The notes below the pieces were generated by a model. It had not been told where the DNA came from. It was given only the letters and a program-made list of their open reading frames with translations, and made no database searches. The position numbers and the translations under genes were made by a program. Positions 2,792 to 47,798 of a stretch of 64,000 nucleotides of DNA are shown piece by piece. The stretch covers positions 5,910,236-5,974,235 of the forward strand of contig OZ251539.1 in assembly GCA_965243135.1 (NCBI GenBank). Direction: 5' to 3'. Each line of letters opens with the position of its first letter. The first letter of the stretch is position 1. This stretch comes from Alphaproteobacteria bacterium (GTDB lineage: Bacteria > Pseudomonadota > Alphaproteobacteria > MPNO01 > UBA830).

Positions 2792-3307
2792 ATGAACTGC
2801 GCCGACCGGATCGTCGACCCGATTCAGAACGCGGAAGCGACGGGGCAGCGCCGGGTATTCCTGTGCGTGGTCGATTCGACGAAGGAATGCCGGGTCGCGA
2901 TCTATTTCGCGGCGCGCCGGACGCTCCGCGCCGACAGCCAGCTCGCGCTCCTCTACGTGATGGAGCCGGCGGAATTCCATCATTGGAGGACGGTCGAGGA
3001 AAAGATGCGCGAGGAGGCGCGCGAGGAGGCGGAAGGCTTCGTTCAGGAATACGCGACGCTCGTTCAGGAATGGACCGGACAGATGCCGATTCTCTATATT
3101 CGGGAAGGAGAACCGACCGAAGCGATCCGGGAGCTGATCGAGGAGGAGCCGCGCATATCGATACTGGTCCTCGGCGCCGGCACCGAAAAGAAGGGGCCGG
3201 GCCCGCTGGTGTCGTCGATCGGCGGCAAGATGTCGGGCAAGTTCCCGATTCCCATCACCATCGTTCCGGGCAACCTGACCGAGGAACAGATCGACATGCT
3301 AACGTGA
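2792..3307 (+). CDS. universal stress protein (UspA family)
   Basis: ATG at 2792 begins MNCADRIVDPIQ...; the Usp fold ends with the ATP-binding G-x2-G-x9-G-S-like motif (LVLGAGTEKKGPGPLVSSIGG). The upstream part of ORF 2084..3307 is an Arg-rich artefact. Confidence 0.8.
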   Translation: MNCADRIVDPIQNAEATGQRRVFLCVVDSTKECRVAIYFAARRTLRADSQLALLYVMEPAEFHHWRTVEEKMREEAREEAEGFVQEYATLVQEWTGQMPILYIREGEPTEAIRELIEEEPRISILVLGAGTEKKGPGPLVSSIGGKMSGKFPIPITIVPGNLTEEQIDMLT

Positions 3308-3643
3308 CGGAGGGGTCTCGGCGAATTCGCGTTTTTGGAAGGAGGGGCTCGAACGGGGAGGCGACGCTTGCCGCGCGAGGACGGAGAGGATCGGTGCCGA
3401 CCGGTCCGCCACCTCGTCCGCACTGGCCCGGGCACTGAAGCCCAGGCGGCGGTCGTACACCCCTTCCGCTCCCTCGTCGCGCCAACGCCGGAAGATGCGC
3501 TCCGAAACGCCCAGCGTCTCCGCCGCCTCGCCTTGGCTCAGCGCCCCGGATGAGACACCTCCTTCCTCAGTCCCTGTTCCGTCCGCCGCTACCTCCTTGG
3601 TCTGGAAGCGTTTTAAACAGGGTACATGGACCGGACATATCAT
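3299..3643 (-). pseudogene. remnant: HTH-like segment fused to a short phage-integrase fragment
   Basis: The C-terminal ASADEVADRSAPILSVLARQA is nearly identical to ATPAAADRSAPILSVIMRQA in the integrase at 14440-15514. The upstream part (LSQGEAAETLGVSERIFRRWRDEG) looks like a transposase/excisionase-type HTH. No full domain is present. Confidence 0.4.
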
Positions 3644-3735
3644 CTGTCACTGACATCGCCGGGCGTTGCCGCTTGCATCCTCACCCAGCCGGGGCTAGAT
3701 TGCGGGCAGATACCCGCTGGCAGCGTGCTGTCAGC

Positions 3736-3775
3736 TCAAGGGCCGCTCCTCGGAGCGGCCCTTGCTTTTTTCCGG
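3736..3775 (+). terminator. rho-independent terminator-like hairpin
   Basis: GGGCCGCTCC-tcg-GGAGCGGCCC followed by TTGCTTTTTTCC on the + strand. Confidence 0.5.
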
Positions 3776-3783
3776 GGACGACC

Positions 3784-4554
3784 ATGAGAACGAGAGTCTA
3801 TGTCGACGGCTTCAACCTGTACTACGGAGCGCTCAAGGGGACGCCATTCAAGTGGCTGAATCTTGTCGATCTGGCGCGCCGGGTGCTGTCGGCGGGATAT
3901 GTCGTGGATAAGCTGCTTTACTTCACCGCCCATGTATCCGGGGTTTCGGACCCGGGGGCGCCGGCCCGTCAGCATGCCTATATCACCGCGCTCCGCACGC
4001 TGCCGGAGGTGGAAGTGCATTTCGGGAGCTTTCTCGCCAAGACGGTCTGGCGTCCGCTCGTCAACCTGCCGGTGGCTGGCCGGCGGATCGACGCACCTCG
4101 GCCCGTGACATTGCCCGCGGGCGATCACACGGTCGTTGGGCCACGGATGCAGACGCTGCCCGTGGGCCGATACCCCGCACCTGGCGCGGGAAGGAAGAGA
4201 CGAGGCAAGGCGTCCGCTCCGCTGCCGGACGCATTGGTCGCGGAGTTCCACGCCATGGAAGAGAAAGGCTCCGACGTGAATCTTGCGGCCCATCTCCTGA
4301 ACGATGCCTGGAGCGAGCTGTTCGAGGCGGCAGTCGTCGTCTCGAACGACACCGATCTTCTGACCCCTATCCGCATGGTGACCGCCGAGCGGAGGAAGCC
4401 GGTCATCATCGTGTATCCAGGACGATGGCAGGTCGCGCCGAAGCTGCGCGCCGCGGCGAGCCATGTGCGCCATATTCGCCCCGCGATGCTGAGAGGGGCG
4501 CAATTTCCTGACACGCTGCCGGGCACTGCGATCTCGAAGCCGACGGGCTGGTAA
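3784..4554 (+). CDS. NYN-domain (LabA-like, PIN-like) putative RNase
   Basis: MRTRVYVDGFNLYYG... then EEKGSDVNLAAHLL and VVVSNDTDL, the three acidic-residue motifs of the NYN fold. Start is the internal ATG of ORF 3550..4554. Confidence 0.7.
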   Translation: MRTRVYVDGFNLYYGALKGTPFKWLNLVDLARRVLSAGYVVDKLLYFTAHVSGVSDPGAPARQHAYITALRTLPEVEVHFGSFLAKTVWRPLVNLPVAGRRIDAPRPVTLPAGDHTVVGPRMQTLPVGRYPAPGAGRKRRGKASAPLPDALVAEFHAMEEKGSDVNLAAHLLNDAWSELFEAAVVVSNDTDLLTPIRMVTAERRKPVIIVYPGRWQVAPKLRAAASHVRHIRPAMLRGAQFPDTLPGTAISKPTGW

Positions 4555-4587
4555 GCGCGCGAGCCAACGCCTTTGGACGCGCCGTAA

Positions 4588-4980
4588 GCGTTCGGTCGTG
4601 GGGTGAGGGTGTCGAAGCCCCGCCTCCGGGCAAGGTTTCAACCAGACATCCTTGACCGGGAAAGCGCGTTCGTTCCGGGTGCCTGAGGCGGCTCTGTTCG
4701 CCCCTGGTTGGCGACCCGGTAGCATGTTCCTCGCGGAGTAGACGTTCGTTTGCGGGCGGCTTGGCGCATGACTTCGCCGGGGGCTGGATACCCGCTTTAG
4801 ATTCCTGTTTGCGATAGCCATGTCGAGCGAACATGCACGCGCACTTCCCGGGACCGAGTTGTCGGGCGGCGGGCGGGCTCTGGCCGCGTTGCGACGGGAG
4901 AATGAGGCTTTTGGCCAAGCGCCGGAGACCACGGTCCAGAAAGCGGAGAAGCGGCGGGGATTTTCCGCCGGGCGACGGCC
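4588..4980 (+). mobile_element. IS66-family 5' remnant (left inverted repeat plus first ~47 codons of the transposase)
   Basis: GTAAGCGTTCGGTCGTGGGGTGA at 4588 matches the IS66-type terminal repeat seen at 18547, 43981 and 46896. ORF 4820.. starts MSSEHARALPGTELSGGGRALAALRRENEAFG like the other IS66 transposase N-termini, then breaks off at about 4980. Confidence 0.6.
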
Positions 4981-4984
4981 GCCG

Positions 4985-5197
4985 CAAGGCGAAACAAAGA
5001 TCCTCCTGAAGCTTCTTTTTGCGGTAATGCTGCAACAGATGATCGATGGCGGCCGATCCCGCTTCCGATGCGAAGGCGACTTCGAAATTCACATTCCGTT
5101 CCAGATGCGCCGCATGTGTTCGCTCAAATACGTTCGCATGCATTTTGTCGGCAACTGATCCCATAATGATCCGGGTGGCCGACTCATTGCGATCCAA
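4985..5197 (-). pseudogene. truncated third ORF of the Ubl/E2 operon (identity unknown)
   Basis: Only about 60 codons (…HANVFERTHAAHLERNVNFEVAFASEAGSAAIDHLLQHYRKKKLQEDL) before the sequence switches to the reverse complement of the IS66 remnant. Confidence 0.3.
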
Positions 5198-5472
5198 TTC
5201 CTTCCTCTCTTGTCCTGATAGCGATTATAGGCGCCTCCCCTCTCGTCATAGATGGGCGGGTTGATGTGAATCCAGTGAGGCGGATATTCCGGGTATCCGT
5301 TTTCCTGCATGCTAATGCCCAACGTTACCTCTCTGCCTTTATAGGCACCAACTTCAACTTTATACGGAAAGAAAATTGCAACAGGTCCATGAGGACTGTC
5401 TTGCAAGTCAGTCAAATATCCCAGAGATTTCAACTCGGATTGAATGCGCACAATGTCGTCGGACATTTGCAA
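5089..5472 (-). CDS. UBC/E2-like fold protein (prokaryotic E2 family, tentative)
   Basis: 127 aa, AT-rich (~48% GC). N-terminal helix IVRIQSELKSL resembles the E2 N-helix; YPEYPPHWIHINPP resembles the E2 YPF-x-PPK-hydrophobic pre-catalytic segment. No canonical HPN-Cys motif. Tightly coupled to the upstream gene (5473/5472). Confidence 0.4.
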   Translation of the reverse strand: MQMSDDIVRIQSELKSLGYLTDLQDSPHGPVAIFFPYKVEVGAYKGREVTLGISMQENGYPEYPPHWIHINPPIYDERGGAYNRYQDKRGRNWIAMSRPPGSLWDQLPTKCMRTYLSEHMRRIWNGM

Positions 5473-5826
5473 TCACGCGACAGGGGTGGAAGTATTGGGG
5501 ATGGTTATGAAATTATTGTCCCGATCCAGATAAACCCAGTCATCGAGCTTATATTCGGTCGCTTCGCCGCTTCGCGATACAAGAATATAGTTTTTCGGCG
5601 TTCCAGGGATCGCTCCTTTCTTTTTCGCATGGATCAAAATATCCTCTGCGACGAGTCTTTCGTGCACAGATTGCAATTTCTCGCCGTTTACCTCGAAAGG
5701 ATATGTTCGGTCGAGAGGATTTCTATGTTCGGATTTTCCAAGAGCGGCGTTCTTGAGAGGAGCGTCGATCTGTTTATCATCGTTGTTCACCGTATCGCTC
5801 CCGCATGGAGAACCCTTTGCGACCAA
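5473..5826 (-). CDS. multiubiquitin-like beta-grasp domain protein (tentative)
   Basis: 117 aa; YPFEVNGEKL...ITIP matches my recollection of the multiubiquitin domain (PF14452) found with E1/E2/JAB genes. AT-rich codon usage. Confidence 0.45.
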   Translation of the reverse strand: MVAKGSPCGSDTVNNDDKQIDAPLKNAALGKSEHRNPLDRTYPFEVNGEKLQSVHERLVAEDILIHAKKKGAIPGTPKNYILVSRSGEATEYKLDDWVYLDRDNNFITIPNTSTPVA

Positions 5827-6583
5827 GATATGGTGCTTTGCGGCGCACTGTCAATAGGAATATTTTGGTACTCGCCGTCGTCGGGCGGCGGTCGATCAAT
5901 GCCAGGGTTGCAGACCGCCGCGCTGCCGAACCATTGGGAGCACCTCGGAATGCGGATCTATTTTTGCCAAACTCCTTGTTTTTATTTACGGAATCGGGAT
6001 TTCCCCGTTAGGCAACGTTCAACGTCTGATTTTCGCTCGCATCCCCAGTCGCCACGCCGCCTCGAAGCGACCAGACTCTTCGAGACCCTTACACCCGACA
6101 AACGCAGGAGAGCACGGTCGCTTTCCCCACCCGTCGGCCCGCGGAGCTCGCCAAACAACCGCAGGAGCGGCGCTGGTTCGTCGAACAGTTGTGGAGCGAG
6201 CAGGCGGTCGGCATAGCCGAAGTGCGGCAAATTCTTTCTCGTTCTCGCCGTTGCCACCGGCACGCCCTGCCTCGGCGCTTCTCTGCTGCTTCCGGCCGCG
6301 TTCTGCTGGGCCGTTCGCCTCCACAACGCCGCAGGCAAGGTTGCGCCGTTGCTTGCCTGCCTGCGCGACCTGCAACGTAACTTCGAAACCGCTGTCGTTC
6401 TCGTCCGCCATGCCCGAGTGTGCACGGACACGATAATCGATGGAAACATTTGGAGAACTCGATCAAAAGGGTCCTGGCAGCGGCCATCCTGCGAGTTCAC
6501 TGGTTGCCTTCGGGCCAAACCATGGTGCTGCTGGCATCGGCAAGCGGTGACACGGAGCTAAAACTAGGGTTTTCTGGCGGACA

Positions 6584-6994: not shown

Positions 6995-7195
6995 CCGCTC
7001 CGACACCCGGACTGACGACGAATCGACGCCCTAACCCTTTATGGCGCACATCCCTTTCTCGCGAATATCCGTGAATTTACGGCGGGTTGCGGCGAACGGC
7101 ACATCCCTTTTTTCGGGGCGTCGGGAGAGTTGCATTCGGGGAACTTTCTCGCGATACACCGAACTTGCGCAGCGCTCGTATCGTGTAAGCGTTCG

Positions 7196-8065
7196 CTACC
7201 CGGGTGATGATCTGCGATTGAGGACCTTCTTCCAGTCCCGCCGCAGGGGCCTCAACCAGATATCCTTGACCGGCAGCGCATACTCGTTTTTCACGTCGAG
7301 TTTGCCGCGGCCCTGCGTTTTGCCGGCCCGAATCCAGTTGGCCGCACGGTAGCAGGTTCCTTCGAAGCGCTGCGTTTCGCAGAAGGTCTCGAGCAGTACG
7401 GGACGCAGAGCGTAGCGGCGGTCCCAGTCGTCGGGCAAACGTTGCTCGACCTGTGCGAGGACGTGGGATGCAAGGCGTTTGATTCTGACCCAGGGCAGTA
7501 TGAGGAACCTTGCGTTGTTGACGACGAAAGGCAGATTGCGCTGACGGCATGTCCCAACCGATCAGCTTGTCCCGTGGCGCAATCTTCCACGCGGCGGCGC
7601 CGAAGCCGAGCACGGCCAGCGGTTCGCCCTCTGCGGAGCGGACGAAGTATCGCAGCTGTGCGCCGGGCATGGGCGTAAAGCCGAGGTAATGATAGCGGTC
7701 GATGAAGGCGTTCCAGAGACGGCCCTCGCTGGCGTTGCGGACGGGTTCGGTGCGCAGCGGACGGACTTGGTCGAGACGGTCGGGAGTTGGGAACGGGGGC
7801 GGCTCGGTTTCGGGAGACGGCGGAGCGGCGAACGCGGGCGGGCTGCGACGGCGGCAGAACGATGAGGCCGTCGCGTTCCATCCGCAACAGGGCGACGCGG
7901 GCGCTCATGTCTTTGACGCCGCCGTTGGGTTTGCGCCAGTCGAGACGCTCGCACAGGATGCGTGAAAGGGGCGTGCGTTTGAGAGGTGGGTTCCGTTGCG
8001 CGATCAAGTCGCGAATCAGGTTGAGTTCGTCCTCGGAGAAATCCCGCCCGCAATAACGATAGCTC
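7196..8065 (-). pseudogene. DUF4338-like IS-accessory protein, at least two frameshifts
   Basis: Pieces MSYRYCGRDFSEDELNLIR..., LAVLGFGAAAWKIAPRD..., NNARFLILPW..., and LLETFCETQRFEGTCYRAANW...GKTQGRGK are collinear with the intact 44008-44877 copy but lie in three frames. Confidence 0.6.
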
Positions 8066-8668
8066 ATGGCCCCTGCGGAGCCGCGGTGCGCCAGGTGCGG
8101 ACGCGCTCCGGGTCGGCGCCCCAGGGAAGCTAGGCATGCGCCTCTTCGGGCGCTCGTCCGCCATGTTCGGCGCAGGCTTGCAGATAATCGCGGAGCCAGT
8201 GGTGCGGCGAGAGGCCGGCCAGTTCGAGCGTACCGAATACGGAGAAGAGCAGCCCGGTCAGTTGCGCGCCCGCCTCGCTGAACGAGCCGAACGAGAGCTT
8301 GCGCCCAACAACCGCGCCGCGCAGGGCGCGCTCGGCAAGGTTGTTGTCCATCGGCACGGCTGTCGACGAAGACCTCCAAGCCTTCGCGATGACGCAGCAA
8401 GGACTGCAACGGCTTGCGCTGCGGCGCTTCCTCCGGCAGGTCGTCGAGTTGCCGCCTCGCGTCGTCGAAGAATGTGTTGCTCTCAAGCTCCCGTTGCGCC
8501 TCGTCGAAGGCGGCGGCTTGTTCTCTCGCTCCGGGGATCCAGTGCCGCAGCCGCTCGGCATTCCAACCGTACAGAGTCGCGATCTTGGCTACCCATTCAT
8601 CGCCGAAAGACTTCATGTCGGGACGCCCGACTCCGATGTCCATGAAGTCGCGGCGCACATGCGTCCAA

Positions 8669-9081
8669 TTATGTTGAATTCAACATAACTGGGCTTATGT
8701 TGCGGATCCAGTTATGTTGCGGAATGGTTGCAACGTACTGAAAAACAATAAAATCAGATCCATTTCCGCAACATAATATTTCGCAATCACAGTGCATCAA
8801 GAAAGGCCGTAAACCTTTTGTTCTCTTTCCACGGGCGAACCGACTCTGCGCAATGCCTGAGACAGTTCAGGCGTTCCTCAAGCAGCGGTGCGGCGCGATA
8901 GAAGGCTATGGCACCGTGATCGACAAACAGATCCTCGAACATGGTCGTATCTCCTTGTGGTCGGAGACATGACCATGGCAAACGAATGCGAATCCAAATA
9001 TTATGTTGCGGAAATGCGTTTGGTTCCGTTGTTTTTCAAGTCGTTAGCGCTCCTCCGCAACATAACTGGATCCGCAACATA
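8669..9081. mobile_element. MITE-like non-autonomous element (413 bp, AT-rich) with 6-bp target duplication
   Basis: Flanked by GTCCAA at 8663-8668 and 9082-9087. Termini are TTATGTTG...CAACATAA. Both ends carry TTATGTTGCGGATCCAGTTATGTTGCGGA in inverted orientation. At least 7 copies of the 12-mer TTATGTTGCGGA plus the perfect palindrome TTATGTTGAATTCAACATAA. It splits the transposase exactly between duplicated CW(T)(Y/H)V codons. Confidence 0.6.
8787..8942 (-). CDS. small ORF (51 aa) carried by the MITE, unknown function
   Basis: ATG at 8942 preceded by AAGGAG at a 7-nt spacing; MFEDLFVDHGAIAFYRAAPLLEERLNCLRHCAESVRPWKENKRFTAFLDAL. No family recognised. Confidence 0.3.
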   Translation of the reverse strand: MFEDLFVDHGAIAFYRAAPLLEERLNCLRHCAESVRPWKENKRFTAFLDAL

Positions 9082-10120
9082 AGTCCAACAGTAAACGAGC
9101 ACGAACTGGTCCGGCAGATCCTTCGCCAGCTTCTTGTAAGCGGAGTACCGGTCGCGATATACCGGCTCGTCGACGCCGAGGCCTCCGAACAACTTCTGCG
9201 CTGCCGCTGCGCTGCGGGAAGGGTCGATGATCATTCGCACGGCGTCCGAGGTCTGGCAAACCCAGAGCCAACTGCGGGGATTGTCGCCTTCCTCGCCGCG
9301 GACGTGAACCCTCCAGCTCGTCTCGTCGCCGTGGGCTATTCTGGCCGTTGCCTGACGTTCGATAATCGCATCGGCCAGCGGCGCGAACAAGGGCACGAAG
9401 CGCTTGACGCTGTCCCCCAGCGTACCTGGCGCGACCTCGAAGTCGAGCATCGACAACTGCCGCGGTACAGATCGCAACGGACGGTGAAGGGCGTAAGTCT
9501 CGGTCAGAAACCAGGTCCAGACGCTCAAGCCATAAGGCGTGTTCGCGAACAGCCGCGGCACCGGCGGAGCGATCGCCTCCTGCTTCGGTGCGCACGAGCA
9601 CGTCGAACGGTACCGGGGCCGGCGGCAACGCCGCTTGTAGGCGCGAAACTCGACCTCGACGAACTCGGTGACCTTTTCTCCGTTTCTCGCGTAAGGCTTG
9701 CCGCAGTTCGGGCAGCGGCATTCCTCAGGCTCAATGACCTCCACCTCTACCGGCAAATCCTCGCGCGGCGTGCGTCCGTGCGACGGCGACCCGGGCTGCC
9801 GCCCCCGACGCCGCCGGGCCTCTCGTTCCGCGCCGCCCTTCCGCGAACGGCGGGTGCGCTCGCTCTTGCGACCGAACTTGTCCCGAACAAGCTTGCGGTT
9901 GCGCGCCTTCAGGCGGGCGTTCTCGCGTTCGGTCTCGTCGAGTCGCTTCTTCGTCTTCGCAAGCTCGTGCCGAAGGCGGCCCGCTTCCCGCTTGAGCTCG
10001 TTCACCGAAGAGACGGACTTCAGGCGTTTCAGCTCGTTGCGCGCCGCCTCTGCGCGCGCCCGCGACCGGCGGTGCTGCGTTTTCCAGAACGTCGCCTGCT
10101 GACGAGCGCTTACCTCCTTC

Positions 10121-10270
10121 CAGCGCGACGCCTCCGCTTCCTGGCGCGACGCCTCCGCTTCCTGGCGCGACGCCTCCGCTTCCTGGCGCGACGCCTCCGC
10201 TTCCTGGCGCGCCTCGTCCCGCTGCCGAATCGCCTCGTCCCGCTGCCGAATCGCCTCGTCCCGCTGCCCG
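10121..10270. repeat. 21-bp tandem repeats inside the IS66 transposase N-terminal region (4 copies of one unit, then ~2.5 of a second)
   Basis: CTGGCGCGACGCCTCCGCTTC x4 then CGCCTCGTCCCGCTGCCGAAT x2.5; encodes QEAEASR x4 and QRDEAIR x2 in the transposase coiled-coil segment. Confidence 0.85.
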
Positions 10271-11629
10271 AGGGTCATTGCCAGCAGCAAGACCCACTGT
10301 CGGTCGGTCGCTTCGAAGCAAAAATCTGGTGTCGCCAACTCCATAAAGGCGATATACAGGGGTCAGCGAATCGTTTCCAGTCCCCGGGGCAAATTTTTTT
10401 CGTCCCCCGGGTAGCGAACGCTTACCGTATCGTTTCTCTTTCATGGCGCTCCAATCCACTGATATTGCGCCGGTTTTTCAGATTTATGCATATGTACAGG
10501 ACATATGGGGCTCAACCTTTCCTTTCCGGCGCTTCGAAGGTCCTGCAGGCCGCTTCGGTATCCTTTCCGAGGCCGTTATGTATGTGGCGAATGCGGACCG
10601 TGAAACGACGACAGCGCGCCGTGACCGACAGCGAGCGGGACGAGTTGAAGCGACGAGCGTGCCGGGGTCTCGCGCTTCGTCTTCGAGCGGCTGATGACCG
10701 AGCCGCCGGCCGCCTTGGAGCGGGCGGGCGTTAGCGGTTCTCTGCGAAGCGGAGAAAGCGCGCATGTCCGAAGAGGTCTGGCTGGGTCTGCGGCGCACGC
10801 CGCTCCGTCACCCGGTCATAGCTCCGGGTCATGAGAAGCCCCGTCTCGACGAAGCGCAGCCAGCATCGCCTCGTCGTGCGCCTTCACGACCCGCGACCGC
10901 TTGCTGGCGTAGACCAGACCTTCCGGCGACGCCGACTTCGGCGCCGAAAAGGTCACGGCCACCCCGGGCAGCTGCTCGTGCCTGCTGTCGCGCAGCCGTC
11001 CCAGCCGCCGACCGGTCCCCAACTCGGCAGCACCTGTGCAAACGCTTCGGCCGGACCGGGCCGCGCAACCTCAGAGCCGCCGCGCCGTCTCCTCCCGGAT
11101 GTCCGCCGCGGACGCCGCGCTCCCTCGCCGAACGCAGTTCTTCGACCGCCCGACGGAGTTCCGCCGCTGGCATCTCGGATTGTGAAGGAACGGCTTGCGG
11201 TGCCTGGCCGGTGCCAGCTCTCCAGCCAAAGCTCCCACCTTAAATCCTTCCCGCCGCGTCCCGGCCCCTGCGTCGCCGCAACCGTTGCCCGCTTCAGCTC
11301 CGCGCTTGCTCCCGTAGCAGACCCGGAAAACGGGCAACCGAGGGGGCGCGGCCGCCGACCGAAAATTCCGTCGGCGTTCCTCCCCCTCGTCCGGGGTCGT
11401 CAGGCAAAACTTTGAAATCGCCGGAGTCGCCCGAAAACCGGAAACGGGTTGGCGACGGGATCGTCAGTCAAGATAGTCGTCTCTTGGTCGTAGAAATGAA
11501 GCATGTCGGCAAGCTCGTTCACGTCACCGCCATGACTGCCCGCATGAAACGCCGGGAAAATTCTGAATCCAGAAGGATTTCGTGGACACACCAGTTACGA
11601 CAAGAAACCTTTCGAAAAATCGTGTTTTG

Positions 11630-12268
11630 CTATCTGTTTTTCAATGAAATTTGAACGCAAAACACTCCCCAATGCAACACCGCATCATCCATTTCTTCTG
11701 ACGAAATACGACGATACTTACATTTCACAACTGCTTCCTTTTCAAATCGTCCCCTAATCATAGTTTCGATGTTCTTTCTCTTTCGTTCGGCTTTCCGCCT
11801 CGCCGATGTCTTGTCTTTTGCCTTTCCCGAAACAAGCACAGCAAGGAAACCTCGACGAAGGGCCCCATTCTGGTGAAAACCGAAGTTGCTTATCGCCTCC
11901 CATATTCTGTCCAAATCTTCCATGCAAGTCTTTTTATTCCATTCTCGTTTTACCTCGATAACGCAAACTGGTTGATCCTTGGAATTGAAAAGCGCGATGT
12001 CCGTCCGTTTGCCGCCCCTGATTGCGCCTGGAAGACGGCCTCGTGTCTGTGCGCCAGACCAATCCCTGATCCAATTGAAGTGCACCTCCAAAAGAAGGCT
12101 TTCGTTTTCATTCTGGAGGCGATTTAATGCATCTCCTATTTCGCAGACTATGAGGCTCTCTACTCCGGAATCCAACAGCGACCAACCGTCTGTCCATTTC
12201 TCGTATTTCCTATTGGCGTTGCGAGTTCCTTTAAAAATCGCCGAAACGATCTGCTTCTCAGTCGGCAT
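11630..12268 (-). CDS. AT-rich orphan gene, PD-(D/E)xK nuclease-like (tentative)
   Basis: 212 aa, about 40% GC amid 65% GC DNA. Contains TDIALFNSKDQPVCVIEVKRE, i.e. D-x13-E-V-K as in restriction-endonuclease-fold nucleases, and a basic C-terminal tail. Confidence 0.4.
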   Translation of the reverse strand: MPTEKQIVSAIFKGTRNANRKYEKWTDGWSLLDSGVESLIVCEIGDALNRLQNENESLLLEVHFNWIRDWSGAQTRGRLPGAIRGGKRTDIALFNSKDQPVCVIEVKREWNKKTCMEDLDRIWEAISNFGFHQNGALRRGFLAVLVSGKAKDKTSARRKAERKRKNIETMIRGRFEKEAVVKCKYRRISSEEMDDAVLHWGVFCVQISLKNR

Positions 12269-44007: not shown

Positions 44008-44877
44008 CTATTTGTTGAGGCTCTTCCTCCAGTCCCGCCGCAGGGGCTTCAGCCAGATGTTCTTGACCGGGAGAGCGCGTTCTTTCCGAGTATCGAGCTT
44101 GCCGCGGCCCTGTGTTTTGCCGACCTTGATCCAGTTGGCGGCCCGGTAGCAGCTTCCTTCGAAGCGCGGCGTCTCGCAGAAGGTCTCGAGCAGGACCGGA
44201 CGCAATGCGTAGCGGCGCTCCCAGTCGTCCGGCAGCCGTCGTTCGACCAGAGCGAGAATATGGGACGCGAGATTTTTCATCCGAACCCAGGGCAAGATCA
44301 GGAACCGGGCATTGTTGACCGCCAGCGGCAGGTTGCGGCGGCGGGTCTCGGGGTTCCATCCGACGAGTTCGTCCCTGGGCGCGATCTTCCAGGCTGCGGC
44401 GCCGAAGCCGAGGACGGCGAGGGGTTCGCCGCCAGCAGCCCGGACCAAGTATCGCATTTGCGCGCCGGGCAGCGTCGAGTAGCCGAGATAGTGGTAGCGA
44501 GCGACGAACTCGTTCCAGAGGCGGCCTTCGCCCGCGTTCCGGACAGGCTCCATGGCGACAGGTTGGACATCGGCGAGACGTTCGGGGACCAGGAACAGGG
44601 GCCTGTCGGTCGCGGGGCCGGGCACGATCGGACGGCGTACGGTCGGCGTTTGCCTTGGCGGCGGCAGGACGATCACGCCGTCGCGATGCATGCGCAGCAT
44701 GGCCACTCGCGCGCTCATATCCTTTAGGCCGCCGTCAGGCTTGCGCCAGTCGAGGCGCCGGCAGACCTCCCGCGACAGCGCCCGGCGGGTGAGGCTGCCC
44801 CTTCCGATCAGGGAGCGGATCATGTCGATCTCGTCCTCGGAGAAGTCGCGCCCGCAGTAGCGGCAAGGGCCGCCGCT
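44008..44877 (-). CDS. DUF4338-like IS-accessory protein (only intact copy in the window)
   Basis: GTG start overlaps the transposase stop (GTGA). CRYCGRDFSEDEIDMIRSL..., RYHYLGY, LAVLGFGAAAWKIAPRDELVGW, NNARFLILPWV, NLASHIL, LLETFCETPRFEGSCYRAANW, GKTQGRGK. Family assignment is from memory of Pfam DUF4338 and is unverified. Confidence 0.6.
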   Translation of the reverse strand, partial: SGGPCRYCGRDFSEDEIDMIRSLIGRGSLTRRALSREVCRRLDWRKPDGGLKDMSARVAMLRMHRDGVIVLPPPRQTPTVRRPIVPGPATDRPLFLVPERLADVQPVAMEPVRNAGEGRLWNEFVARYHYLGYSTLPGAQMRYLVRAAGGEPLAVLGFGAAAWKIAPRDELVGWNPETRRRNLPLAVNNARFLILPWVRMKNLASHILALVERRLPDDWERRYALRPVLLETFCETPRFEGSCYRAANWIKVGKTQGRGKLDTRKERALPVKNIWLKPLRRDWRKSLNK

Positions 44878-46680
44878 CACGGTCCCTGGGGGAGAGAGGG
44901 ATGCCAGGAGCGGAGGCGCTCCTCGCCTGCGCCCCACGGCAGCCAGGCAGCCGGGCCTTCGGGCGGCGGACCGCGATGACGGGCGCAAGCATCGAGATAA
45001 TCAAGCAGCCAGCTGTACGGCGAGACGCCGGCCATCTCGAGCGTGCCGAAGATGGAATAGAGCATGCCCGCCAACCGCGCTCCGTCCACGCTTTGCGACC
45101 CGAACGAAAGCTTCCGGCTGATCGCGAGGCCGCGCAAGCCGCGTTCGGCGGGGTTGTTGTCCATGGGAACGGCCGCGTTGTCCACGAAGGTTGTCAAACC
45201 GTCGCGGTGGCGCAGCAGGGAGTCCAGAGGGCCGCGTTGCGCCGCGCTCTCCGGGAGCGCGTCCCGCGCCTTTTTCGCCGCCGCGAAGAACGCTTCGGCG
45301 AACCTCGCGAGCCGCCGCTGGGCGGCGGCGTTGTCCGGGCGCGCCAGACGCCTGGCGTTGAGACGGTATAATGCCGCAATGCGACGAAGCCACTTTTGGG
45401 CGAACTGCGCGAGGTTCGGGTAGCCGGTCTCGAGGTTGACGAAGTCGCGTCTGGCATGGACCCAACAATATGAAAGGACGATGCACCCTTCCATGACGCG
45501 CGCCAGCTTCCGATAGGCGGAGTAGCGGTCGCAGACCAGGTGAGCCGCCTGTTCGGGCGAGCCGAGACCCTTGAACAGCTCAAGGGCGGCTTCCGCGCTA
45601 CGCGACGGCGAGGATGCGGACCGCGTCCGCCGCCCGGGCGATCCAGGCCCAAGCGCGAGCGTTGCCTCCGTCCTCTTCGCCCAACTCCCGTATCCACCAC
45701 CCTGTCTCGTCGCCGTGAATGATCGGCGCCTTCGACAGATGCCGGGAGATCTCTTCGTCGAGCGGCTCGAACAGGCGCAGGAACCGTCGCTGGGCGTCCG
45801 CCAACGTGCCGGGCGCAATGGCGAGCCCGTGCTGGCCCAGCGCGCGGCAGACCGAACGCAGCGGACGATGCAGGCCATACCTCTCCGCCAGGACGTTCGC
45901 CCAGACGGAGACTCCGTACCGAGTGTTCGGGAACAGCCGCGCCGGGGCCGGGCCGACAGCCTCCTTTTCCGGTCGGCAGGTACAGGCCGGGCGCAGCCGC
46001 TTCCGTCGAATCCTCCGGACATAGGTGACGGTCCTGGTCTCGACGATCTCCGTGTCTTTCCAACCGTTCGAGACCCAGGCTTTGCCGCAGTCCGGGCACG
46101 TGCGCTCGTCCGGAATCGACTCCTCCTCGCGAACGGGCAGCTCGGGGCGCTGCGTGCGACCATGCGACGGCGTTCCCTGATGGCGCCCCCGGCGTCGACC
46201 GGTTGCCGCAGGCCGCCGCTCGCTGCGGCGCCCGAACAGCTCCCGGGCAAACCTGCGGCTGCGGGACTCCAGACTCTCGTTCTCCGGCGTCTCCGCAGTT
46301 CGACACGGGGGCGGCACCTCATGTCTCTTTATCTCGGCGTCGCAGCAACACTTCTCCGCTTTCTGGACCGCGGTCTCCAGCTCCCGGCCGAGATCCGCAT
46401 TCTCCCGGCGCGACGCGGCCAGCGCCAGACTGAGATCCGCACTCTCCCGGCGCGCCGCGGCCAGCTCCCGGCCGAGATCCGCACTCTCCCGGCGCGCCGC
46501 GGCCAGCTCCCGGCCGAGATCCGCACTCTCCCGGCGCGCCGCGGCCAGCTCCCGGCCGAGATCCGCACTCTCCCGGCGCGCCGCGGCCAGCTCCCGGCCG
46601 AGATCCGCACTCTCCCGGCGCGCCGCGGCCAGGCCGCCGCCCGACAACTCGGTCTCCGGAAGTGAATGTTCGCTCGACAT
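44877..46680 (-). pseudogene. IS66-family DDE transposase (single-ORF ISBst12-like type), one frameshift near 45600
   Basis: MSSEHSLPETELSGGG, coiled-coil repeats, CPDCGKAWVSNG, HGDETGWWI...; then in a second frame DRYSAYRKL...CWVHARRDF...PMDNNPAERGLRG...SPYSWLLDYL. Confidence 0.7.
46381..46640. repeat. 42-bp tandem repeat (about 5.5 copies) inside the IS66 transposase N-terminal coiled-coil region
   Basis: CTCCCGGCCGAGATCCGCACTCTCCCGGCGCGCCGCGGCCAG units; encode ELAAARRESADLGR x5. Confidence 0.85.
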
Positions 46681-47798
46681 AGCGACCGTGGAGCCAAAAA
46701 CGCGTGTCCAGCCCCCGCCCGAATCATTCGCCAAGCTCAATCGAACGTTTACTCCGCGAGGAGCGCCGGGCCGCCAACCAGGGGTGGACAGCCTCAGGCA
46801 CCCGGAACGAACGCGTTCTCCCGGTCAAGGATGTCTGGTTGAACCCTTGCCTGGAGGCGGACTCTCAACACCGTCACCCCACGACCGAACGCTTACGCCG
46901 CCTTTGCCGTCGTCCTCTTCCACTGCCATTTCCAGCCATGCCCAGCCCAGCATTCGCCCGTCGCTTACGCGACGGGCGACGGACTTCGTCAGTTCCGCAT
47001 GAGGGGCCGAAGTAGTCGGACAGGTCTGCGTCCACCACCTCGTGGTAGCCTTGTCTCAGCAGCTGGTGCACCCGATTGACCGCGTCGAGTGCGCCTCTTT
47101 CCGGTCTGTAGGCATACTGCTCCGGTTGCAGGTCGGCTTCGAAGATCGGCGACAATATGAGCATCGCCGCCGTTTGCGCCACCCTGCGCAGGGGATGCCC
47201 AGGGGCCGGAATTTTCCGCGCTGTTTCTTTGGGACCTGCCGTACCGCGGTCGGTCGGTAGGTTCCTTCTTTCAAGTCCCGCGCCAGTTCCTCAAGCCATT
47301 GGTCCACTCCTTGCGCTTCGATATTCGCTATCGTCGTTCCGTCCGTCCCGGCAGTCCCTCCGTTTCGACGGACGTCCTGCCAAGCCGTGAACAGCACTTC
47401 GTAGCTCCATACCTTGTCGCATAGCGAGTAGAACCGGAAGCTCGGGGATTCCTTCGCTTGTAACGTTGTCTGGAGTCTCCGAACTTTCTCCGAGGCTGCT
47501 AGGCTTTTGCCAGTCCTCATGTCCTTTCTTCCTTCCAACGCTTCTCTCGACCCAAGGCCCCTTTCCTCCACCGGCATTACCCGGCTTCTCCGGTACTACG
47601 GGCCTCTCCGCCACCCTGCCGGCCCGGCCTGCCCCTCGCGGGGTTCCGGTTGACTCGTGCGCGTCACCGACAGGGCTTCCCGTGTTGCTGCTTCCTTCAT
47701 CTTCCATGCGTGCCGACCCCCGGCGGAAACGGTCGGTGCTCTTGTCGTTCTCTTCCCGACCGTCGGCGGCTTTCCCCTAGTTTCTGGAGGGTCAGCTT

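Follow-up and report, generated by a model that had tools for sequence, protein, structure and literature searches.

Genes and features at the locus

The 64,000-nucleotide stretch analysed here (contig OZ251539.1 of the Alphaproteobacteria bacterium assembly GCA_965243135.1, positions 5,910,236 to 5,974,235; hereafter the window, with coordinates counted from its first nucleotide) harbors two closely spaced intact open reading frames (ORFs), both on the minus strand. ORF1 encodes a ubiquitin-like protein (Ubl) and is followed by ORF2, which encodes an E2-like protein. Downstream lies a short 5′ remnant of a third gene, which abuts a fragment of an insertion sequence (IS) of the IS66 family. 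We interpret this locus as what probably remains of a four-gene cassette that is found intact in other bacteria, where the third gene encodes a fusion of a JAB peptidase with an E1-type enzyme (JAB-E1) and the fourth a DUF2971 protein. The features that matter for the argument are the following.

4967..5865, no strand assigned: low guanine-cytosine (GC) remainder of the cassette, of presumed foreign origin; about 90% nucleotide identity to the closest relative (locus L001) is confined to this span
5825..5854, minus strand: putative sigma-70-like promoter, TTGACA-18 nt-TATCTT, with 10 of 12 positions in a consensus scan, about 35 nt upstream of the Ubl start
5473..5790, minus strand: Ubl gene (ORF1), 105 amino acids (aa), start GTG at 5790 set from homologues
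5089..5466, minus strand: E2-like gene (ORF2), 125 aa, start ATG at 5466 set from homologues
4967..5092, minus strand: 5′ remnant of the JAB-E1 fusion gene, 42 codons, located by tblastn; its GTG at 5092 overlaps the stop of the E2-like gene
4584..4966, plus strand: internally truncated left end of an IS66-family element, with the terminal GTAAGCG at 4584 and likeness to 46596-46901
44877..46901, minus strand: fuller IS66-family copy with a 481-aa ORF (DDE_Tnp_IS66, E 7e-31), the upstream 300 bp being 77% identical to 4584-4966

The GC content is 0.469 in ORF1 and 0.487 in ORF2, against 0.633 for the whole window, which agrees with the AT-rich minus-strand gene pair in a GC-rich background that was described in the first-pass annotation of this stretch. 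The gene starts given there had to be moved, from 5826 to the GTG at 5790 for ORF1 and from 5472 to the ATG at 5466 for ORF2. All relatives of the Ubl begin with MN(N/D)DDKQID, and the GTG at 5790 is preceded by GGGAG; the gap between the ORF1 stop and the ORF2 start is 6 nt. The third gene was also correctly seen as cut at an IS66 element, but its proposed start at 5197 or 5164 and its length of about 60 codons are replaced by a GTG at 5092, overlapping the ORF2 stop as ATGTGA, and 42 homologous codons. An inverted repeat, GTGC..GCAC, lies inside the spacer of the putative promoter. Homology with L001 at the DNA level opens at about 5865, just upstream of this promoter, and stops at the same point as the protein homology of the third gene.

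The ubiquitin-like protein

We modelled the Ubl with AlphaFold2 (AF2), using 91 homologues, and matched its core to the PDB by Foldseek. The predicted protein consists of a disordered N-terminal tail of about 25 aa and one beta-grasp domain, whose core (residues 27-100) has a predicted local distance difference test score (pLDDT) of about 88. The best PDB matches of this core were the bacterial multi-ubiquitin structures 8u38, 9d5a, 9d59 and 9cd2 together with BubA (9ea8_B), while ubiquitin itself came afterwards. The matches to 8u38, 9d5a, 9d59 and 9ea8_B each had a probability of 1.00, and BubA (residues 155-229) aligned with the core with a template modelling (TM) score of 0.73 and a root-mean-square deviation of 2.6 Å. 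As modelled, ORF1 encodes a single beta-grasp Ubl with a clear likeness of fold to multi-ubiquitin and BubA, so that structure prediction bears out the multiubiquitin-type domain first recognized from its sequence.

Profile searches with Pfam, which had been proposed as a check on both proteins, gave a divided answer. The window Ubl was not matched by Multi_ubiq (PF14452; gathering cut-off 24.5 bits), which two fused relatives touched at 19-20 bits, below that cut-off, while the E2-like protein touched Prok-E2_E (PF14462) below cut-off and some of its relatives passed. These two were the only Pfam families touched. A PDB sequence search with the Ubl profile returned chance matches only and did not recover BubA, and scans against NCBIfam and PADLOC found nothing for the Ubl, the E2-like protein or the chimeric third ORF of the window.

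The Ubl ends in ...TSTPVA, of which T-P-V-A is conserved. The terminal Ala is invariant in 91 of 91 aligned homologues and ends 68 of the 83 ORFs called for the Ubl in related loci; in all, 562 homologues were found at E <= 0.001. Rare relatives are fused in frame to the E2-like protein (L006, P0037, P0047, P0062 and others), with TPVA or TPVS retained at the joint. For example, a natural fusion in a Latescibacterota metagenome-assembled genome (MAG; L006, 5665-6372), in a cassette that is otherwise a typical four-gene one, reads ...IPNKSTPVA-TIPE-MSDNINRI..., and in several metagenomic fused proteins one or two beta-grasps stand ahead of the E2. Since these in-frame fusions keep ...TPVA, we take it to be the mature end of the Ubl. 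The ratio of nonsynonymous to synonymous substitution rates (dN/dS) of the Ubl against its relatives is 0.24-0.30.

The E2-like protein

The AF2 model of the ORF2 product has a pLDDT of 90.6 and a predicted TM score of 0.84, and combines a four-stranded meander and an extra hairpin with one N-terminal and two C-terminal helices. Its best Foldseek matches were Ubc12, UbcH7, Ubc13, UbcH8 and the TSG101 UEV domain, all of them weak (best E 0.025, TM about 0.5). The Prok-E2_E hit of the window protein (E 0.0025, 18 bits) falls short of the gathering cut-off of 25 bits, and the same family was matched by 13 of 57 E2 relatives, the best at E 5.2e-8. An hhalign comparison with four canonical E2s gave E 5e-5 and placed YPEYPPHW opposite the E2 motif YPFKPPKV. 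Three independent lines, individually weak but concordant (Foldseek, Prok-E2_E and hhalign), thus place the protein in the UBC superfamily.

There is no conserved Cys in this family: Cys is entirely absent from 52 of the 92 E2-like ORFs called in related loci, and Cys109 of the window protein is His in most relatives. The early description of ORF2 as UBC-like but devoid of the canonical catalytic Cys therefore stands. The only invariant column among 57 relatives, with identity down to 22%, is Ser95, in the context W-x-A-(M/L/I)-S-(R/P)-P, which in the window reads W-x-A-M-S-R-P-P. The confident part of the hhalign alignment is limited to the N-terminal half, and Ser95 was not equated with the E2 catalytic Cys85. 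The dN/dS of the E2-like protein against its relatives is 0.10-0.19.

The intact cassette in other bacteria

About 90 related loci came from protein look-ups and a single scan of species-representative genomes, and 82 non-redundant ones were used for counts; the scan set comprises 79 distinct loci, with one per species-representative genome. The Ubl gene is present in 81 of the 82 and a long third gene in 80, so that the intact locus that had been sought in related genomes exists in about 80 loci, with Ubl, E2 and JAB-E1 together. The third gene overlaps the E2 stop by 4 nt in nearly all of them. Two relatives of particular interest (L089 and L090), which share 82% amino-acid identity with the window E2, carry all four genes.

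The third gene product, about 490 aa long, fuses an N-terminal JAB/JAMM peptidase to a ThiF-type E1 with a single adenylation domain. When a profile of 41 orthologues was compared with the PDB, the best match was Citrobacter BubCD (E 8e-30, over both domains), followed by MoeB at 3.5e-14; the PDB entries encountered that contain BubCD were 9ea5, 9ea8, 9eae and 9eav. The suggestion that the truncated gene would prove to be an E1 or JAB gene in intact relatives was thus right on both counts, the two being one protein with BubCD as its best relative. In alignments of 41 to 78 orthologues, the JAB catalytic set is invariant or nearly so (E..HSHP..S..D, with the Glu within QEDLCF), and so are the E1 features GxGxxG, NLDR, D, two CxxC pairs, Tyr358 and Tyr376. 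Both Tyr residues follow the first CxxC, and the CxxC pairs provide the only Cys near the crossover region.

A DUF2971 gene of about 350 aa is adjacent in 64 of 82 loci, convergent in 53 and on the same strand in 11; when convergent it typically overlaps the 3′ end of the E1 gene. Its product matches PF11185 (for L003 above cut-off, at E 4e-5), and the proteins keep the motifs H-Y-T, W..YG and Y..E.E.R (ExE-R). DUF2971 is predicted to be a DarT-like ADP-ribosyltransferase (ART; PMC12522546) and constitutes the single protein of the Aristaios anti-phage system of Lactococcus (PMC11381338). We also observed loci with tandem duplicated Ubl-E2 pairs, a doubled Ubl or an extra orphan E2-like gene past the DUF2971 gene, all with one JAB-E1 (L021, L028, L063; L012, L013, L045; L030, L034, L035, L050, L053, L073).

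The GC content of the cassette is more than 3 points below that of its flanks in 68 of 80 related loci (median difference -7.8 points). Its neighbours include bSEFIR, type II CBASS (cyclic oligonucleotide-based anti-phage signalling system), QueC/TGT CBASS, PsyrTA, type I and type III restriction-modification (R-M) systems, DarT-Macro and serine recombinases. Genes for an HTH_3 (XRE) helix-turn-helix (HTH) protein and an M78/IrrE-like peptidase lie directly upstream on the same strand in 8-9 Dehalococcoidia loci (L030, L034, L035, L044, L050, L055, L067, L073, L074; e.g. L067 4420-5642). This pair resembles the DNA-damage regulators CapH and CapP, which stand beside 31% of Bub operons (Ye et al., 10.1101/2024.11.21.623953). 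We clustered the ORFs within 3 kb of about 78 loci and scanned seven of the eight largest clusters against Pfam: five were R-M subunits, HTH, M78, recombinase and DarT-Macro, and two had no Pfam match. No fifth gene family occurred in more than 9 of these loci within 3 kb, and neither conserved secretion signals nor secretion-system genes were seen near the cassette. TIR, patatin and STAND genes downstream of E1 in loci devoid of DUF2971 were considered as swapped effectors; this was rejected, since they belong to complete neighbouring systems, namely bSEFIR, type II CBASS (with cyclase and Cap2), QueC/TGT CBASS, PsyrTA and type III R-M.

The cassette occurs across many phyla. Its carriers in loci L006-L084 are nearly all MAGs, from Latescibacterota, Dehalococcoidia, Caldilineaceae, Entotheonella/Tectimicrobiota, Nitrospirales, Acidimicrobiia, 'Spongiisociaceae' and Bdellovibrionales, lineages that we take to be typical marine-sponge symbionts.

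Loss of the third gene in the window

Over 42 codons the stub product VNFEVAFASEAGSAAIDHLLQHYRKKKLQEDLCFALRRPSPG follows the N-terminus of the ~490-aa protein found in related loci, and past that point the likeness ends. By tblastn, residues 1-42 of the intact E1 of L090 align with 5092->4967 at 79% identity (E 5.5e-15). At the point where the stub ends, the DNA passes into the IS66 remnant, which we assign to that family on its terminal GTAAGCG and its likeness to a DDE_Tnp_IS66-encoding element, 4584-4966 being 77% identical to window positions 46596-46901, upstream of the DDE_Tnp_IS66 ORF 44877-46322. The decay at an IS66 remnant read from the sequence at first (then placed at 4588-4980) is hence confirmed with slightly shifted boundaries. 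Because the IS66 element is itself cut within its body at its contact with the stub, the junction reflects a deletion of the remainder of both rather than a simple insertion. Given that L089 and L090 carry all four genes, the window has lost about 1.35 kb of E1 together with the DUF2971 gene, and no other pieces of either gene were found in the 64 kb.

The E1 gene is broken elsewhere too. In L001, the closest relative, it ends at residue 108 (7375-7698), and in L092/L093 (5858-6114) a frameshift near residue 40 leaves it ending near residue 86, an ISAzo13 transposase lying 0.5 kb away; in both cases the ORFs of the Ubl and E2 are intact. E1 was thus lost independently in two other lineages (L001 and L092/L093), which may reflect chance or counter-selection. 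A truncation hot spot near E1 codon 40, common to the window and L092, was considered and rejected, as L092 is frameshifted and homology reaches about residue 86. We also noted that the DNA after the broken E1 of L001 (7722-7799) contains GTAAGCG and is 75% identical to window 3314-3386 (minus strand), which is near an ORF at 3299-3643 (-) that by its appearance encodes a putative HTH protein; the two segments are probably the end of another IS common to both genomes.

The intact ORFs and dN/dS values of 0.10-0.30 against relatives are in keeping with a loss that was recent. On their own, the surviving Ubl and E2 cannot conjugate, and the window copy is most likely inert without E1, JAB and DUF2971.

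Relationship to known conjugation and defence systems

Type I Bub consists of BubAB, BubCD and BubE (Ye et al., 10.1101/2024.11.21.623953), and such operons are also known as '6E.1' or DUF6527 operons. BubAB is a Ubl-E2 fusion cut after a conserved Gly by a JAB domain, BubCD a JAB-E1 fusion with Tyr370 in its crossover loop, and BubE a DUF6527 Ser protease that is stated to be present in all Bub operons; conjugation proceeds via Tyr and Ser oxyesters (10.1101/2024.11.21.623953). The cassette shares with this type the JAB-E1 fusion, for which BubCD leads the next PDB match by about 15 orders of magnitude, a Ubl beta-grasp resembling BubA and, as apparent parallels, an E2-like protein with an invariant Ser and no conserved Cys, and an E1 with invariant Tyr residues and no crossover Cys. 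Low GC, mobile or defence settings and, in some loci, upstream CapH/CapP-like HTH and M78 genes are further points in common, and its rare members with Ubl-E2 fusions recall BubAB. It departs from Type I in that nearly all loci encode Ubl and E2 separately, in that its Ubl ends in an invariant Ala (...TPVA) whereas BubA ends in Gly, and in that its Ser lies in S-R/P-P and lacks the S-x-H of Type I BubB, to which the cassette E2 has no detectable sequence similarity. The DUF2971 ART-like gene, moreover, is the usual fourth component of the cassette. BubE/DUF6527 (PF20137) was absent from the precomputed Pfam matches of ten contexts (L002-L005, L085-L090) and no DUF6527 was present among the seven Pfam-scanned ORF clusters, neither of these amounting to a direct PF20137 scan of every ORF.

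Type II Bub (BubA, BubBD, BubE) has in common with the cassette a separate Ubl gene and a Cys-free logic. However, it fuses E2 to E1, has no JAB and is always accompanied by BubE, in contrast to the JAB-E1 fusion and free E2 of the cassette, in which no BubE was found. Bil (BilABCD) is likewise a small cassette of Ubl, E2, JAB and E1 activities in defence islands, but works with Cys thioesters through an E1 of tandem IAD-AAD-CYS design, keeps its JAB protein separate and has a Gly terminus, whereas the cassette joins JAB to a single adenylation domain and uses a Cys-free E2; against JAB-E1 the PADLOC BilD model scores only weakly (E 1e-6), via the adenylation core. The PADLOC CBASS E1-E2 models match that core at E 1e-18, and type II CBASS (Cap2/Cap3) resembles the cassette in its ThiF-type adenylation and JAB partner. 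A C-terminal Ala is also tolerated, and conserved, in type II CBASS CD-NTases, being accepted in some substrates of that system (PMC10449767). Yet Cap2 is an E2-E1 fusion with catalytic cysteines, the CD-NTase itself acts as the 'Ubl', there is no beta-grasp gene, and no cyclase is conserved beside the cassette among ORFs within 3 kb of the related loci. As for Aristaios/DUF2971 (PF11185), the fourth gene of the cassette matches PF11185 and keeps motifs of the H-Y-E type, but Aristaios acts alone, while the DUF2971 gene of the cassette is placed tail-to-tail with the conjugation module (and is absent from the window).

We therefore describe the family as Bub-related rather than strictly Bub, for no BubE/DUF6527 was found, a feature said to be present in all Bub operons, and as lying outside Type I and Type II as defined. 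Literature searches for 'Type III Bub' or for a link between DUF2971 and ubiquitin-like proteins found nothing, and the family appears to be a variant of Bub-type cysteine-free conjugation systems for which we found no description. The first-pass annotation had called the locus the remnant of a Bub-type operon, potentially a divergent subtype; that caution was well placed, and the broader relationship holds (JAB-E1, BubA-like fold), whereas membership in Bub proper does not, in view of the missing BubE, the separate Ubl and E2 genes and the Ala end.

A possible cysteine-free relay and its alternatives

On balance, we regard the window locus as probably, though not beyond doubt, the stump of a horizontally acquired four-gene cassette whose intact form works as a Bub-like Cys-free relay, and which was deleted at an IS66 element. 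By analogy with Type I Bub, the E1 domain would adenylate the C-terminal Ala of the Ubl (Ala105), which would then pass as an oxyester to an invariant Tyr of the E1 crossover region, next to Ser95 of the E2-like protein and finally to a target lysine. The JAB domain could process the rare fused Ubl-E2 precursors after ...TPVA and would probably also remove conjugates, in place of the missing BubE. The DUF2971 protein would be the likely toxic output or the target, in an anti-phage or stress-response role. In the window, the IS66-associated deletion would have removed E1 past codon 42 and the whole DUF2971 gene, leaving the Ubl, the E2 and the promoter.

Several observations weigh against this proposal. 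The HMMER alignment to BubCD ends at residue 329, before Tyr358 and Tyr376, either of which may be the counterpart of Tyr370 of BubCD. In the E2-like protein, aligning the C-terminal half to canonical E2s, even when forced, produced zero-confidence columns. BubB was detected neither by the E2 profiles nor by a distant fused relative (P0096) in PDB sequence searches, which yielded chance matches alone, and was not among the top 50 Foldseek matches of the model; placing Ser95 at the catalytic position of the E2 Cys or of Ser333 of BubB follows by analogy. The DUF2971 protein could be an effector, a target or a merely linked gene, and an intact E1 may be encoded elsewhere in the genome, the E1 search having covered the 64-kb window. 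A defence or stress role of the cassette is suggested by association, and anti-phage activity has not been shown even for Bub (10.1101/2024.11.21.623953, Discussion).

Some of these points would suit an E2-like protein that is a non-catalytic UEV/RWD-like adaptor, the Ubl being transferred straight from E1, or never conjugated and instead regulating or binding the DUF2971 protein. The protein has no Cys, TSG101 UEV domains are among its Foldseek matches, one relative matches the Pfam RWD family, and its C-terminal half is unalignable to active E2s, with no detectable similarity to BubB. We nevertheless think this unlikely, since a lone invariant Ser down to 22% identity matches what has been reported for BubB and its catalytic Ser (10.1101/2024.11.21.623953), and the partner E1 lacks a crossover Cys yet has invariant Tyr residues, which together fit a complete Cys-free relay. 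A slightly slimmer chance attaches to the window pair still working as an orphan module, with a JAB-E1 from another part of the genome to charge it. Neither ORF is disrupted, the promoter has been kept, dN/dS lies at 0.1-0.3, and there are relatives in which extra Ubl-E2 pairs or an orphan E2 depend on one E1 (L021, L028, L063, L030, L034, L035, L050, L053, L073); but no E1 homologue lies within the 64 kb, the stub shows that the local copy was destroyed, a low dN/dS mostly reflects divergence before the deletion, and the closest relative, L001, also has a broken E1.

We attach equally little credence to the idea that the cassette serves symbionts in dealings with a host or in general stress, its eukaryote-like proteins being deployed on or against that host, rather than in immunity. 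Almost all carriers of the 79 loci are MAGs, whose lineages we presume to be mainly from marine sponges, and Bub has no proven anti-phage phenotype. On the other side, the neighbours are classic defence systems and CapH/CapP-like regulators, conserved secretion signals and nearby secretion-system genes are lacking, and a DUF2971 protein has been proven anti-phage in Lactococcus (PMC11381338). A sulphur-carrier pair of the ThiS/MoaD type, for the biosynthesis of a cofactor or thio-compound, is brought to mind by the best NCBIfam matches of the E1 domain, ThiF and MoeB, and can be set aside almost entirely: these matches are all far below cut-offs, the Ubl has no C-terminal Gly-Gly, the cassette includes an E2-like protein and a JAB peptidase, no conserved sulphurtransferase or biosynthetic gene is nearby, and BubCD is a far better match than MoeB (E 8e-30 vs 3.5e-14).

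Surroundings of the locus in the window

The neighbourhood of the gene pair is a graveyard of mobile and defence fragments. An ORF at 3550-4554 (+) has an NYN domain (Pfam E 1.5e-5) and matches the PADLOC candidate defence protein HEC-09 at E 3.5e-37; its true start is likely near 3784 (MRTRVYVDGFNLYY...), and 30 nt separate its end from that of the IS66 element at 4584. As a possible counterpart of the convergent DUF2971 gene it was rejected, the two being unrelated on comparison. On the other side, 7077-7670 (-) contains a fragment of Druantia DruA (Pfam E 4e-6, profile positions 80-121 only), adjoined by partial IS66-family transposase ORFs at 8130-8561 (-) and 9001-10344 (-). The 5′ part of the latter includes, at 10123-10268, two adjacent perfect 21-bp tandem arrays (4.2 x GCGCGACGCCTCCGCTTCCTG and 2.8 x CGCCTCGTCCCGCTGCCGAAT), which would encode in-frame heptad repeats. 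More low-GC islands (0.43-0.51) occur at 8550-9150 and 11400-12000+, against a background of 63% GC.

Implications

For the annotation of the window, the outcome is that two hypothetical proteins belong to a broken defence-island cassette amid IS66 debris. For the family, the published set of Bub operons was gathered through DUF6527 (10.1101/2024.11.21.623966, Methods), and because Bub was defined in 2024 by the presence of DUF6527, relatives lacking it were invisible to that survey. The present cassette keeps the unusual Cys-free E1/E2 pair but with three exchanges: of the deconjugase, of the Ubl terminus (to Ala) and of the partner gene (to a predicted ART). It is conceivable, and we put this forward tentatively, with more doubt than confidence in the whole, that it represents a third, BubE-less architecture of Tyr/Ser oxyester conjugation, with Ala activation, coupling to a DarT-like toxin and an abortive-infection or stress role, spread horizontally over at least ten phyla of bacteria that are mostly sponge-associated; that E1 only has been lost repeatedly (window, L001, L092/L093) would in that case point to selection against a module prone to autoimmunity. 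If the proposed chemistry is true, oxyester-based conjugation would extend beyond the DUF6527-defined operons, and the cassette would offer a natural case of an E1 that activates a C-terminal Ala on a beta-grasp protein. It would also provide a tractable output, ART toxicity, for a class of pathways that has had no known biological role.

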